64,000 nucleotides of DNA from Alphaproteobacteria bacterium (GCA_965215635.1 CBDCEA010000005.1:325491-389490), one strand, 5' to 3'. Shown: positions 34,550 through 45,190, counted from the stretch's first letter. Notes: generated by a model from the sequence alone, not told the origin. Program-made: numbers and translations.

Positions 34550-35338
34550 TCAGGAGATGGCCCTGCCGACGGCCCTTCCTGCCATGACTGTGACGAGGTG
34601 GGCCCGGTAGTCGGGCGATGCGTGGATGTCGCTGTTGAGGCCGTCTTCCGGGATCGGGATGCCGGCGACGGATCCGGGGGCGAAGTCCCGGGCCAGGGCC
34701 TCCTCCATCTCCTTGACGCGGAAGACCGATGGTCCGGCCCCTGTCACAGCGACGCGCACACCGTCTGCGGTCTCGGCAACAAAGACCCCGACGATGGCGT
34801 AGCGTGAGGCCGGGTTGGGAAACTTCATGTAGGCGGCGCGGCGCGGCGTGGGAAAGATAACGGACTTCACGAGTTCACCGTCCTCGAGGGCCGTCTCGAA
34901 GAGATCGACAAAGTAAGCGTCGGCAGCGATCTCGCGGCGGTCGGTGACGATCGTCGCGCCGAGGCCCACCAGCGCTGCCGGGTAGTCTGCCGCAGGATCC
35001 GCATTGGCGATCGAGCCGCCAAGCGTGCCGCGGTTGCGCACCTGGAAATCGCCGATCATGCCTGCGAGCTCCGACAGGGCCGGAATGCCGTCGGCCATGC
35101 GCGCAACTTCGGCATGCCGGACACCTGCCCCGACGGTGATCGACGCACGATCATGCTTCAGTCCCTTGAGTTCGCCGATGCCGCCCAGGTCGATCAGGTC
35201 GGAAGGAGCCACAAGGCGCATCTTGAGAGTGGGAACAAGCGTGTGACCGCCGGCGATATAGCGCGGATCCTCGCATCCGCCATGAAGGCGCACGGCATCG
35301 CCGATCGAATCGACGCTGTGATAGCGGAAGGCATACAA
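34550..35338 (-). CDS. coxM: FAD-binding medium subunit of a molybdenum hydroxylase (CO dehydrogenase / xanthine dehydrogenase family, CoxM-like)
   Basis: FAD-binding PCMH-type domain …AGGHTLVP…; 262 aa; 3 bp after coxS. Confidence 0.85.
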   Translation of the reverse strand: MYAFRYHSVDSIGDAVRLHGGCEDPRYIAGGHTLVPTLKMRLVAPSDLIDLGGIGELKGLKHDRASITVGAGVRHAEVARMADGIPALSELAGMIGDFQVRNRGTLGGSIANADPAADYPAALVGLGATIVTDRREIAADAYFVDLFETALEDGELVKSVIFPTPRRAAYMKFPNPASRYAIVGVFVAETADGVRVAVTGAGPSVFRVKEMEEALARDFAPGSVAGIPIPEDGLNSDIHASPDYRAHLVTVMAGRAVGRAIS

Positions 35339-35341
35339 GGT

Positions 35342-35821
35342 TCAGGCCCCCTTGCCGGCCATCTTGCCCGCCGCCGCGGCAATCGACTTGACGATGTTGT
35401 GATAGCCGGTGCAGCGGCACAGGTTGCCCTCGAGATGCTCCCGGATCTCGCGTTCCGTGGGAGCCGGGTTGTGTTTCAGGAGGTCGAGAGCGCTCATGAT
35501 CATGCCGGGTGTGCAGAAACCGCACTGAAGGCCGTGGTTCTCGTGGAAGGCCAGCTGCATCGGATGAAGCGTGTCGCCGTCGGCAAGGCCCTCGATCGTC
35601 GCGATCTCGCGTCCCGATGCCTGGACCGCAAGGATCGTGCAGGACTTGACGGAATCGCCGTCGAGATGGACGACACAGGTCCCGCACTGGCTGGTGTCGC
35701 ATCCGACGTGGGTTCCTGTCAGGCGAAGGGTTTCCCGAAGGAAGGTGACGAGCAGCGTGTTTTCCTCGCACGTCCCCGAACGCACTTGCCCATTGACCGT
35801 CATCGATACGGTGATGGCCAT
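35342..35821 (-). CDS. coxS: (2Fe-2S)-binding small subunit of molybdenum hydroxylase (CoxS-like)
   Basis: Start [12 protein letters not shown] at 35821 after GAGGAG; two [2Fe-2S] motifs CDTSQCGTC and CGFCTPG…CRCTGY. Confidence 0.9.
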
Positions 35822-35855
35822 GGCTCTCCTCGCCTTTCCTTGTCCGACACCAAGC

Positions 35856-36452
35856 CTACTGGAGAAACGCCGCCACGACACCAAACGCGACAAGTGCAAG
35901 ACCCGCCAGCCCGAACAACACCCTTTCCATGACGACTGCCAAAGCTGGTTCCCGATGATTCCCGGTTGGGTGCTCCACCGGTTCCTCCATGACCTCTTCT
36001 CCATTCGCTTCGTCTGTGGACACCAGGTCATCGAAACGCTCGAAAAACTCTCCGGCGATCTTGCGCGCGCTGCCTTCGACGAGACGCGCGCCCACCTGGG
36101 CAAGCTTGCCCCCGACCCTGCCCTCCGCGGCGTAGCGCAGGATTGTCGCTGCTCCATCGGCCTCCAGTGTGACCTTTGCGCCTCCGCTGGCGAATCCCGC
36201 GGCACCCCCCTTGCCTTGGCCGGTGATCACGCAGGTTGAAGGCGGATCGAGCTCGGAGAGCATGACCCTGCCGGAAAAGACGACCGAGACCGGACCGATC
36301 TTAGTCTTCACCTTCGCCGTGAACGCGGTGTCCGATTCCTGTTCGATGGCCTGGCAGCCCGGTATGGCCCGCGCGAGTACGTCCGGATCGTTGAGAGCCT
36401 GCCATACGGTATCGCGAGGCGCGCCGATGCGGTGTTCCCCTGAAAGTTCCAT
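35856..36452 (-). CDS. coxG: CoxG-like SRPBCC protein (carbon monoxide dehydrogenase subunit G family) with C-terminal membrane anchor
   Basis: Family resemblance of N-terminal 150 aa; hydrophobic C-terminal helix …[17 protein letters not shown]. Confidence 0.75.
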
Positions 36453-36467
36453 GACTGTCCTTTTCGG

Positions 36468-43022: not shown

Positions 43023-43282
43023 GGCTCTTCCCCGAGATGGCCGAACCTGAAGTACTTCAGTGCCGCGAGGGTTCCGACAAAGTTGAGAAAAGCATAGGCG
43101 AGCGAAAGATCCAGAAAGTCCGGACGGTCCGTCAGGTAGCCTGCCACCGCGATCAGGAGAACCGTCATGGTCCCGTGGACATTGACCGCGAGGATGCGAT
43201 CATAGGGTGTCGGACCGCGCACAGCGCGCACGAGGGTCAGCGCCATCGCCACCACCAGACATGCCGTCGCGACCGTGAACAT
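43019..43282 (-). CDS. mrpF: MrpF subunit
   Basis: …RGPTPYDRILAVNVHGTMTVLLIAV… matches MrpF …IGPTMSDRIVALDTFGIN…. Confidence 0.75.
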   Translation of the reverse strand: MFTVATACLVVAMALTLVRAVRGPTPYDRILAVNVHGTMTVLLIAVAGYLTDRPDFLDLSLAYAFLNFVGTLAALKYFRFGHLGEEP

Positions 43283-43767
43283 CAGGGCCTGCCCTCCATG
43301 GCGCAGACCCGGCGGTCCATTTCGCCCTCTTCCAGATCCTCGAGGCCCTTCCTCGAGAGCGCGTGAACATGAATGCGGTCCGGCAGCACCGACAGGGAGA
43401 CCGTTCCCGGCGTGAGCGTGATCGAATTGGCGAACGCGACAAGGCCCGCCGGTGTCTTCTGGTGCGCGGCCACCCAGCCGGAACCTGGATCAAGCTTCAT
43501 CCTCGGCGACAGGATGGTACGCGCAACGGTGACGTTGGCGATGCCGATCTGCCACACCAGCCACGGCAGATAGAGAACCAGACCCCCAGCCAGGTGGATC
43601 GGAAACCCCTCCTCGTCGATCGCTCCCATGCGATGGGCGATGACCACAACAAGCACGCAGGCGACCGCACCCGACGCAAGAAGGAAGGGATCCCAGTGCC
43701 CGGAAAGGACAAGCCATGTCCCCGCAAGCAAGACAAGAAGACCGATCACACGAACCAACGCACCCAC
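43282..43767 (-). CDS. mrpE: MrpE subunit (start approximate; GTG/TTG)
   Basis: C-terminal …ILSPRMKLDPGSGWVAAH…ITLTPGTVSL… matches MrpE …IVLSPKMNIQPG…ISLTPGTLS…; the long track ORF to 44343 is an N-terminal over-extension. Confidence 0.6.
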   Translation of the reverse strand: MGALVRVIGLLVLLAGTWLVLSGHWDPFLLASGAVACVLVVVIAHRMGAIDEEGFPIHLAGGLVLYLPWLVWQIGIANVTVARTILSPRMKLDPGSGWVAAHQKTPAGLVAFANSITLTPGTVSLSVLPDRIHVHALSRKGLEDLEEGEMDRRVCAMEGRP

Positions 43768-44130
43768 TCCATCACCACGAATCCAGCAACGCGCGGCACC
43801 GCAAACCACGCCTTTCTTCGAGTATGCCCAAGAGTGAACCGCGAACAAGATTGCCAGGATCAATAACGTCAGCACCGGGGATTCATTCACACAAATCCGC
43901 CACCGGATTGCCGGTCCCGACGCGATAGACGTGAACGGGAAGGAAGCAGCGGGCGTCGTAATGGGCGTGGAACTGCGACAGTTGCTGGGTAGCGCGCCTG
44001 ATCGCAGATATCGCCGATGCCGGGGGTGATAGCGGCAGAAGAGATCGACCAGCGCCGTCGTCGTGCGCGAGAGCCCGTTCTCCAGACGGCTGATGGTCGG
44101 TTGCGAACAGAGTGCGCGGCCAATTTTAAC

Positions 44131-44180
44131 AGGGGGTCGGGGCGCAGCGCGTCGCAGGGGGTCGGGGCGCAGCGCGTCGT
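44131..44180. repeat. perfect 25-bp tandem duplication (AGGGGGTCGGGGCGCAGCGCGTCGC x2) in the leader region upstream of the mrp-cox operon
   Basis: Read directly: 44131-44155 and 44156-44180 are identical. Confidence 0.9.
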
Positions 44181-44326
44181 CCTCGTATCGGCAGGCGATC
44201 GCGAACATGCAATAGCACAGCATCGCCGACAACGTATGGACCACTCCTCGCCGGGTCGCGCATGCAGCCCGCCAGGGTGTCGGCCAGACGCAAGCGGCGT
44301 CCTGTGTCAACGGGGCAGCCTCCTGT

Positions 44327-45190
44327 CTACAGTGGCGGTACATCCAATGTCACAGCGACCGGGCAATGGTCTGACAGAAATTCCTGCATGCTCTCGTTCT
44401 CGGCATATACAAGCTGCTCGAAGCTTCCCGGCACGACCCACTTGCCGACCTGAACGTCGTAGACGATGTGATCGATGTAGCGGGGGTATTTCCCAGACCA
44501 GCACTCCGAAGACCTGCCCTCGGTCGCTCGGGACAAGTCCAATCCATTGGGCTCTCCATCGTCGATCTCGGACCAGAAGTCGTCTCCGGGCTTGTCAAAG
44601 CGCCGGTTGAAGTCCCCGAGGACGATGAACGGGGTTCCGTTTGCCGCCCTTTGGTCGATCCACTGCTCCAGCACAGGCACCTGGGATGCCAGTTTCTCGC
44701 AATGGTTGCCTTCGATGGATGGTTCGGGAAGGGGTTTCTGGAAGCAGAAAGATTTCAGATGTACCACGAGGAATCGAATGGACGTCTTGCCTGCCATGAT
44801 CTCGATGTCGACACCGTGACGCAGGCGGCCTGTGGTGTTCATCTCCTCCAGGTCCGGATGGCGCCTTACCGGAACTGTTATCCTGACGGCGAAGGCGGTT
44901 CGTTGTTTGGCCTTCCCTCCTCGCTCTGAAACGAAGAATCTGTAGAGATCGGGATCGAATATTTTCGCCAGGGCCTGCTCGTTCTCGATTTCCTGAAGCG
45001 CCACAACGTCGGCATTCAGCAACGCCGCATATCCCTTCAAGCGAAGAAAATCTTCAGCGTTTCTTGGATTTCTTCCCTTGCCTGGAGAGGCCTCCAGATT
45101 CTCGATGTTCCAGGTTGCAATCTTGATCGTGTCGGCCGATGCAGGCAAAACGAGAAACAGTGCCACAACAAGAATAAGGAGCGCCTTCAT
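44327..45190 (-). CDS. secreted endonuclease/exonuclease/phosphatase (EEP) family protein
   Basis: Signal peptide MKALLILVVALFLVLPASA; EEP catalytic blocks (…IATWNIENL…, …ALQEIEN…, …LGDFN…, …SDHCPV…); noticeably lower GC and A/T-ending codons than neighbours. Confidence 0.8.
   Translation of the reverse strand: MKALLILVVALFLVLPASADTIKIATWNIENLEASPGKGRNPRNAEDFLRLKGYAALLNADVVALQEIENEQALAKIFDPDLYRFFVSERGGKAKQRTAFAVRITVPVRRHPDLEEMNTTGRLRHGVDIEIMAGKTSIRFLVVHLKSFCFQKPLPEPSIEGNHCEKLASQVPVLEQWIDQRAANGTPFIVLGDFNRRFDKPGDDFWSEIDDGEPNGLDLSRATEGRSSECWSGKYPRYIDHIVYDVQVGKWVVPGSFEQLVYAENESMQEFLSDHCPVAVTLDVPPL

Follow-up and report, generated by a model that had tools for sequence, protein, structure and literature searches.

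Thirteen consecutive genes on the minus strand of a 64,000-nucleotide stretch of alphaproteobacterial DNA (GCA_965215635.1 CBDCEA010000005.1:325491-389490; the whole stretch is called the window here) place ten mrp genes directly before coxG, coxS and coxM (34550-43767). We consider it probable that two known systems are brought together here in one probable transcription unit: an autonomous group-3 Mrp antiporter and a cox appendage that does not pass its electrons into Mrp. A new respiratory complex made of Mrp and a molybdenum (Mo) hydroxylase is disfavored, because the mrp genes are autonomous, their order is not diagnostic of a redox complex, the layout of the cox genes is variable, and the cox genes have been lost in relatives. 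The first-pass annotation of this DNA had proposed a novel combination, in which an ion-translocating Mrp module is paired with an electron-input module of the xanthine dehydrogenase (XDH)/carbon monoxide dehydrogenase (CODH) family. These same observations, together with the existence of coxG-S-M trios elsewhere, leave that proposal unsupported, and the evidence favors the alternative that it had also mentioned, a group-3 Mrp antiporter whose operon also contains cox genes.

The coupled genes, their identities and their order as first annotated were borne out by the list of open reading frames (ORFs) with their translations, by domain assignment and by reading of the junctions. Domains were assigned with Pfam, and curated NCBIfam equivalog models with cutoffs were used for the Mrp subunits. 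The series mrpE-F-G is followed by an MbhD/E-like piece corresponding to the MrpA C terminus, by mrpB and mrpC, by three antiporter-like genes (D1, D2 and D3) with a small gene, x, before the third, and by coxG-coxS-coxM:

43282-43767, minus strand: mrpE (MNHE), 161 amino acids (aa), GTG start; PF01899, 1.8e-27
43019-43282, minus strand: mrpF, 87 aa; PF04066, 8e-16
42690-43022, minus strand: mrpG, 110 aa; PF03334, 5e-22
42148-42693, minus strand: MbhD+MbhE fusion (DUF4040), 181 aa; PF13244 and PF20501
41729-42151, minus strand: mrpB (MnhB), 140 aa; PF04039, 3e-29; passes NF009162 (166 versus 120)
41367-41729, minus strand: mrpC (NuoK-like), 120 aa; PF00420, 2e-22
39881-41362, minus strand: D1, MrpD/NuoM-N-type antiporter-like subunit, 493 aa; PF00361, 9e-59
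38403-39884, minus strand: D2, antiporter-like subunit with NuoL/MrpA-N-like sequence affinity, 493 aa, TTG start; PF00361, 2e-51, and a weak Proton_antipo_N match
38158-38406, minus strand: x, 82-aa membrane protein with two hydrophobic segments; no Pfam or NCBIfam family
36468-38165, minus strand: D3, MrpA-N/NuoL-type antiporter-like subunit, 565 aa; PF00361; passes NF009310 (673 versus 564)
35856-36452, minus strand: coxG, SRPBCC/COXG domain with a C-terminal hydrophobic transmembrane (TM) anchor, 198 aa; PF06240, 4e-35
35342-35821, minus strand: coxS, Mo-hydroxylase small subunit with two [2Fe-2S] motifs, 159 aa; PF01799 and PF00111
34550-35338, minus strand: coxM, Mo-hydroxylase FAD subunit, 262 aa, TTG start; PF00941, 4e-42

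Every junction in this run is either an overlap or a gap of 3-34 nucleotides (nt). The overlaps span 1-8 nt (TGATG, GTGA, GTGA, ATGA, TAATG, TTGA, ATGA and ATGACTAG); mrpE and mrpF share 1 nt in TGATG, mrpF and mrpG overlap in GTGA, mrpB and mrpC meet in TAATG, and the start of D3 overlaps the end of x by the 8 nt of ATGACTAG. The gaps are 4 nt from mrpC to D1, 15 nt from D3 to coxG (13 bp in the first-pass annotation), 34 nt from coxG to coxS, with AGGAG upstream of the coxS start, and 3 nt from coxS to coxM. The mrpC frame begins at an internal ATG within the ORF at 41367-41936, and the GTG at 43767 gives an mrpE product of 161 aa, matching homologues of 160-163 aa in the related loci L001 and L002. 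Co-transcription of the mrp and cox genes in the window organism is likely. A scan for promoter and terminator consensus sequences found 11 terminator-like sites versus 8.9 expected from shuffled sequence, which is uninformative about a transcript boundary between D3 and coxG. As a separate observation, a strongly positive AT skew (0.15-0.26) is confined to the mrp genes (36000-44000); it fits the T-rich codons of hydrophobic membrane proteins encoded on the minus strand and marks no separate feature.

The first ten genes are a complete Mrp. Three of their products carry the Proton_antipo_M domain, in agreement with the three NuoL/MrpD paralogs reported at first, and the hidden Markov model classification suggested for them was carried out. 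D1 is closest to MrpD and NuoM-N; its best NCBIfam models are of the MrpD type, every score being below the cutoff. D2 is closest in sequence to MrpA-N, NuoL, NdhF and HyfD, with NdhF, NuoL and MrpA as its best sequence matches in the PDB, yet it has only 493 aa. D3 is of the MrpA-N/NuoL type. Its AlphaFold model (mean predicted local distance difference test score, pLDDT, 81) has a core of 14 helices, followed by a long helix spanning 485-530 and a terminal TM helix spanning 540-562; as modeled, this tail, which is less certain (pLDDT 56-71), is a NuoL/MrpA-type lateral helix with its anchor TM. The best fold matches of D3 are MrpA (7qru_A), NuoL and NdhF, and its best PDB sequence match is MbsH' (6u8y_X). 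Residues E121, K193, K224 and K357 are invariant among 24 homologues; from their motifs, we take them to be the TM5 Glu and the TM7, TM8 and TM12 Lys. The fourth gene, which had been labeled a fragment of mrpB, encodes an MbhD+MbhE fusion; it passes NF009159 (179 bits versus a cutoff of 141) and aligns with residues ~600-790 of MrpA models, and is the counterpart of the MrpA C-terminal domain, TM17-21.

Thus, every Mrp subunit type is covered: A-N (D3), A-C (the DUF4040 protein), B, C, D, E, F and G, of which D3, the DUF4040 protein and MrpB score above the NCBIfam equivalog cutoffs. There is no full-length mrpA gene, the order is irregular (E-F-G-A'-B-C-D-D-x-D), and mrpD-like genes occur in several copies; MrpA is split into D3 and the MbhD/E-like piece, and two further D-type subunits and x are added. 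With all subunits, a split MrpA and extra D copies, genes 1-10 fit the published definition of a group-3 Mrp (PMC5703873, PMC8415708). By analogy with group-3 systems that have been characterized, we infer that the ten-gene complex would act as a Na+(K+)/H+ antiporter driven by the proton-motive force. In related loci from many phyla, the small gene x separates D2 from D3 without exception wherever the site is covered, and it is under purifying selection (ratio of nonsynonymous to synonymous substitution rates, dN/dS, 0.13-0.31). Its product, which matches no family among the Pfam and NCBIfam models, is probably an undescribed small subunit of the ten-gene Mrp form.

The autonomy of these ten genes is seen in their distribution. 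The comparison covered about 160 related loci overall. An exact-sequence look-up of D3 returned no record, and relatives were compared in its place: D3 has more than 8000 homologues, and a scan of one genome per species gave at least 585 matching species, from which 80 loci were kept. The 13 window proteins were searched with tblastn against these 80 loci, 61 of which have enough upstream sequence and 43 full 10-kb flanks. In 59 of the 61, all ten mrp genes keep exactly the same order, and the 19 shorter loci carry a consistent suffix of it. The carriers belong to the Alpha- and Gammaproteobacteria (among the latter Shewanella, Colwellia, Alteromonas, Zhongshania, Microbulbifer and Paraglaciecola), Verrucomicrobiota, Myxococcota, Gemmatimonadota, Latescibacterota and Desulfopila. 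Any cox gene lies nearby in just 5 of the 43 loci with full flanks, all five alphaproteobacterial, and the tblastn search found cox genes near the mrp unit in no non-alphaproteobacterial locus among the 80. Genes 1-10 form a self-contained unit that exists independently of cox in most lineages.

The tight mrp-cox fusion, by comparison, is specific to the clade of the window. A search for the arrangement in other genomes, as the first-pass annotation had advised, recovered the ten mrp genes followed by coxG-coxS-coxM in L083, L001, L085 and L007 (all tight) and in L002 (with a 0.7-kb gap), whose D3 proteins are 98, 88, 78, 73 and 61% identical to that of the window, respectively. Two other members of the clade have lost the cox genes. 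L084 (D3 81% identical) has Band_7/NfeD genes in place of the cox genes. In L003 (D3 76% identical), the cox genes are reduced to a 62-aa 5' remnant of coxG at 11711-11884, 13 nt past D3 (55% identity, E = 1e-14), after which come phosphoribosyltransferase and MFS genes that in the window sit beyond the variable region. Both loci retain all ten mrp genes as full-length matches, so deletion of the cox genes is compatible with a retained Mrp cluster.

The cox module of the window is itself incomplete. CoxS has all eight cysteines, in the patterns CX4CX2CXnC and CX2CXnCXC, and the CoxM motifs AGGHTL and TLGGS are conserved across the alignment of relatives (its PF03450 match is marginal, 25.2 bits versus a cutoff of 25.5). 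Searches by tblastn with the CoxL proteins of L010 and L004 found no CoxL homologue in the 64-kb window or in the loci L001, L002, L007, L081, L083 and L085. In L004, L010, L117 and L144, a Mo-binding L subunit of 783-800 aa lies between coxS and coxM; in the window clade, coxM follows coxS by 2-9 nt with no L between. Because L004, L010, L117 and L144 have coxG-S-L-M, coxL was lost in the window clade, which, with its D3-G-S-M layout, forms a single monophyletic group in a tree of CoxS and CoxM. A ~1000-aa YdbH-like gene follows coxM in L002 (14458-17736), L085 (13791-16934), L007 (13594-16479) and L117 (10850-14089). The sharing of this flank between L117 (G-S-L-M-YdbH) and L085, L002 and L007 (G-S-M-YdbH) indicates that coxL was deleted from between S and M in an otherwise conserved cluster. 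In L002 and L085, the YdbH-like gene is followed by maturation genes of the coxD/coxE/xdhC type, yet no coxL is found within 10 kb. In L010, the nearest relative with an L gene, the L subunit reaches 657 where the CODH model (TIGR02416) requires 991; with the relatives' L subunit under that cutoff, the Cox enzyme is better described as a form-II-like Mo hydroxylase than as a demonstrated CO dehydrogenase.

Removal of coxL by the island downstream of coxM was considered and rejected. L001, L002, L007 and L085 also have no coxL, yet have different downstream genes, so the L-less state predates the variable region of the window; moreover, the coxL of relatives sits between S and M, not after M.

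Neither the anchor of CoxG nor the absence of L is tied to Mrp. In a metagenome scan centered on CoxM, the usual layout is (coxG)-coxS-coxL-coxM with mrp absent. Trios of coxG-S-M without coxL occur away from mrp in L108, L112, L141 and many others, that of L112 standing beside a solute symporter on a 3.7-Mb contig; the L-less trio is therefore not an Mrp adaptation. The C-terminal hydrophobic anchor of CoxG, too, is present in most members of the cox family, with mrp adjacent or not, and its interpretation as an adaptation to Mrp was rejected. CoxG-dependent membrane association occurs in Oligotropha carboxidovorans.

The cox part of the unit may be pictured as follows. Genes 11-13 encode the membrane anchor (CoxG), the iron-sulfur (FeS) subunit (CoxS) and the FAD subunit (CoxM) of a form-II-CODH-like Mo hydroxylase of the XDH family. 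The gene for the catalytic L subunit, deleted in the window clade from its place after coxS, would, if extant, lie elsewhere. CoxG would hold CoxS and CoxM, plus any remote L subunit, at the membrane, and electrons would pass from Mo to the FeS clusters, to FAD and to quinone. As in other CoxG-anchored enzymes, these electrons would most likely enter the quinone pool and not the Mrp module. The tight junction between mrp and cox would have arisen within the window clade, by rearrangement of an older and looser neighborhood.

Such looser neighborhoods are found in other Alphaproteobacteria. In L010, a ChaN-like gene and a gene on the other strand come before coxG-S-L-M, which is 3.3 kb downstream of mrp; in L134 and L144, the cox genes are 1.4-1.8 kb from mrp with other genes between; in L004, L081 and L117, the cox cluster is divergent and upstream of mrpE; and in L082, coxG stands alone, followed by coxD/E-like accessory genes. 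Several points weigh against regarding the cox genes as an unconnected appendage. First, the neighborhood, in its several layouts, is spread over at least three separate parts of the D3 tree. Second, roughly half of the alphaproteobacterial loci whose flanks are long enough have mrp and cox in proximity, and, from the other side, mrp is next door in 3 of about 14 cox-centered metagenomic loci with enough upstream sequence. Third, coxG, coxS and coxM are under purifying selection (dN/dS 0.07-0.27 versus L001, L085 and L002) despite having no adjacent coxL. Fourth, among the 120 best matches to the CoxL of L004, all at least 72% identical, not one lies on a contig of the coxL-less genomes, although a more diverged L would escape such a comparison. 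The recurrence exceeds chance adjacency, and a functional or regulatory link may exist. It could also be explained by inherited synteny with local inversions, or by selection for co-regulation.

One form that such a link could take is shared regulation, with no physical coupling, of a membrane-bound Mo hydroxylase and an antiporter that act under the same physiological conditions, for example if an auxiliary dehydrogenase fed the respiratory chain that energizes Na+ extrusion. The recurrence across divergent D3 lineages, both co-directional and divergent, speaks for it, as a divergent pair can share a regulatory region, and all three group-3 mrp clusters of Thermococcus onnurineus accompany respiratory complexes (PMC8415708). 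The association is limited to the Alphaproteobacteria, however, about half of which do not have it; no regulator common to mrp and cox was identified, and inherited synteny with local rearrangements could yield the same picture. We regard a link of this kind as unlikely.

A stronger proposal is that, in an alphaproteobacterial subset, Mrp and a CoxG-anchored FeS/FAD module, with or without Mo, form a physical, redox-linked ion-translocating complex without NuoB/D/H. CoxG would tether CoxS and CoxM (and perhaps L) to the three-pump Mrp, and substrate oxidation or quinone reduction would drive or gate ion translocation; in the window clade, CoxS and CoxM would serve as an L-independent flavo-FeS input. 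The tight, probably co-translated 13-gene unit and the recurrent proximity of mrp and cox in several alphaproteobacterial lineages are compatible with this, as are the retention of the cox genes under purifying selection without coxL and the sequence similarity of D3 to MbsH', which is an extra pump subunit of a redox-driven complex. Yet a NuoH/NuoB/NuoD-like coupling module is present in every known Mrp-derived redox pump (PMC8415708), and the operon has none. Moreover, the Mrp unit is autonomous in most taxa, close relatives dropped cox and kept mrp, other lineages have divergent layouts or layouts spaced by intervening genes, and the CoxG anchor and the G-S-M trio are not confined to an mrp context. 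Both the tethered complex and its L-independent variant in the window clade therefore seem very unlikely to us.

At the opposite extreme, the cox genes could be functionless, decaying leftovers of a Mo-hydroxylase operon after deletion of the catalytic gene, carried along by the mrp operon. The absence of coxL, the further deletion tolerated in L003 and the mobile-element debris that flanks the operon in the window all fit this idea. But the frames are intact, CoxS keeps all eight cysteines and CoxM its FAD motifs, and the 3-nt junction of coxS and coxM is conserved in L001, L002, L007, L085 and L081. All 13 genes are under purifying selection (dN/dS 0.07-0.31 versus L001, L085 and L002), and the cox values, similar to those of the mrp genes, hold across relatives with D3 identity down to 61%, with coxS at 0.07-0.13 versus distant relatives. 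Purifying selection on coxG, coxS and coxM indicates that these genes are not decaying, and we give the idea of leftovers hardly any credence. The antiporter with a cox appendage thus remains the reading that we prefer.

Mobile-element debris lies on both sides of the operon. Upstream, a long ORF running into mrpE contains a fragment of a DDE_Tnp_1_4 (IS1380-like) transposase (43768-44343, minus strand; E = 2e-7, profile positions 50-116 of 435). An insertion at 44327-45789 (minus strand), made up of a secreted-looking Exo_endo_phos gene and a 200-aa ORF of no family, separates mrpE from a DUF192 gene (46160-46792). Beyond this insertion lie conserved divergent DUF192 and urease genes; in L001, L002 and L085, the DUF192 gene is directly and divergently upstream of mrpE. 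Downstream of coxM, the region 23889-34500 is variable, with a content unlike that in L083, the 98% relative. Encoded in it are a UvrD_C fragment, a Fic protein (32433-33710), a phosphoribosyltransferase, a glyoxalase-like protein, an HAD hydrolase, a 728-aa protein with ankyrin repeats and SH3 (26220-28406), and an IS66 TnpB with a transposase (23889-26158). A tRNA scan of the window found no tRNA genes as island borders. In one branch of the family, a ChaN-like gene (PF04187, Tiki superfamily) stands directly after D3 (L010, 12145-13143; L134, 2709-3752); it may be an accessory of the Mrp operon in that branch.

A redox-driven pump, if true, would give the Mrp-derived respiratory enzymes their first member that has no complex-I-type coupling module and would bear on the evolution of such machines. 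As a group-3 Mrp antiporter with a clade-specific cox appendage, the unit has mainly descriptive value. What is documented here is a ten-gene Mrp form, very widespread and strictly colinear, that combines three pump subunits with an unnamed small one; an alphaproteobacterial mrp-cox neighborhood that recurs; and coxL-less coxG-S-M trios kept under selection. A literature search found no paper connecting mrp with CoxG and no mention of the alphaproteobacterial neighborhood in the searchable literature. Protein x, the neighborhood and the L-less trios are modest, testable leads.

The operon can be compared with several known systems. With the MBH and MBS (Mbx) complexes of the Thermococcales, it shares the gene order of the membrane arm, and D3 and MbsH' are both extra pump subunits with a lateral helix. 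MBH and MBS, however, carry an energy-input module of MbhM (NuoH), J (NuoB), K (NuoC), L (NuoD) and N (NuoI), whereas the window operon has none of these. Pfam finds no NuoB/C/D/H/I-type domain in the 13 operon proteins, and no such module was seen in the 10-kb flanks of L001, L002, L084 and L085. The feature that defines MBH, MBS, FHL, Fpo and complex I, namely a NuoH-like protein with a NuoB/NuoD(/C/I)-like coupling module encoded along with the membrane arm, is thus missing from the operon, and the first-pass annotation was right that it has no Nuo-like connecting genes; tblastn, as noted, adds no CoxL. The Mrp (Mnh) modules of T. onnurineus resemble the window in having an oxidoreductase gene set next door. 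Those clusters, however, include a membrane hydrogenase with Nuo-like coupling subunits, whereas the neighbor in the window is a Mo-hydroxylase FeS/FAD pair with no hydrogenase-type module.

With form-II CODH-like coxG-S-L-M clusters (L004, L010, L117 and many metagenomic loci), the window shares CoxG, CoxS and CoxM at 55-72% identity, as well as the TM-anchored CoxG, but it is missing the Mo (L) subunit. Of the features of a Mo hydroxylase, the S subunit with two [2Fe-2S] clusters and the FAD-binding M subunit are present and the PF02738/PF20256 L subunit is absent; with no L subunit, nothing in the window reaches the cutoff for the large subunit of a true (form I) CODH.

The likeness is greatest to Mrp clusters that stand alone. 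That of Pyrococcus furiosus has the order mrpEFGBB'CD and a role in Na+-coupled pH homeostasis (PMC8415708), a cyanobacterial group-3 Mrp has Na+/H+ antiport activity (PMC5703873), and that of Nitrospira has two extra NuoM/L-like genes after mrpD (PMC7784846). The order E-F-G-B-B'-C-D, from which a redox complex had originally been suspected, was rejected as a mark of one, as the stand-alone P. furiosus Mrp has the same order (PMC8415708). The searched literature holds no experimental characterization of the ten-gene form, which differs from the stand-alone clusters in its three antiporter-like subunits, the lateral helix of D3 and the 82-aa x. In common with those of P. furiosus, cyanobacteria (Ah-mrp, mrpCD1D2EFGAB) and Nitrospira, it has all subunit types, no full-length mrpA, a separate MbhD/E-like C-terminal part and multiple MrpD-like genes, and with P. 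furiosus it also has its gene order in common. The stand-alone group-3 Mrp is thus the closest known system.

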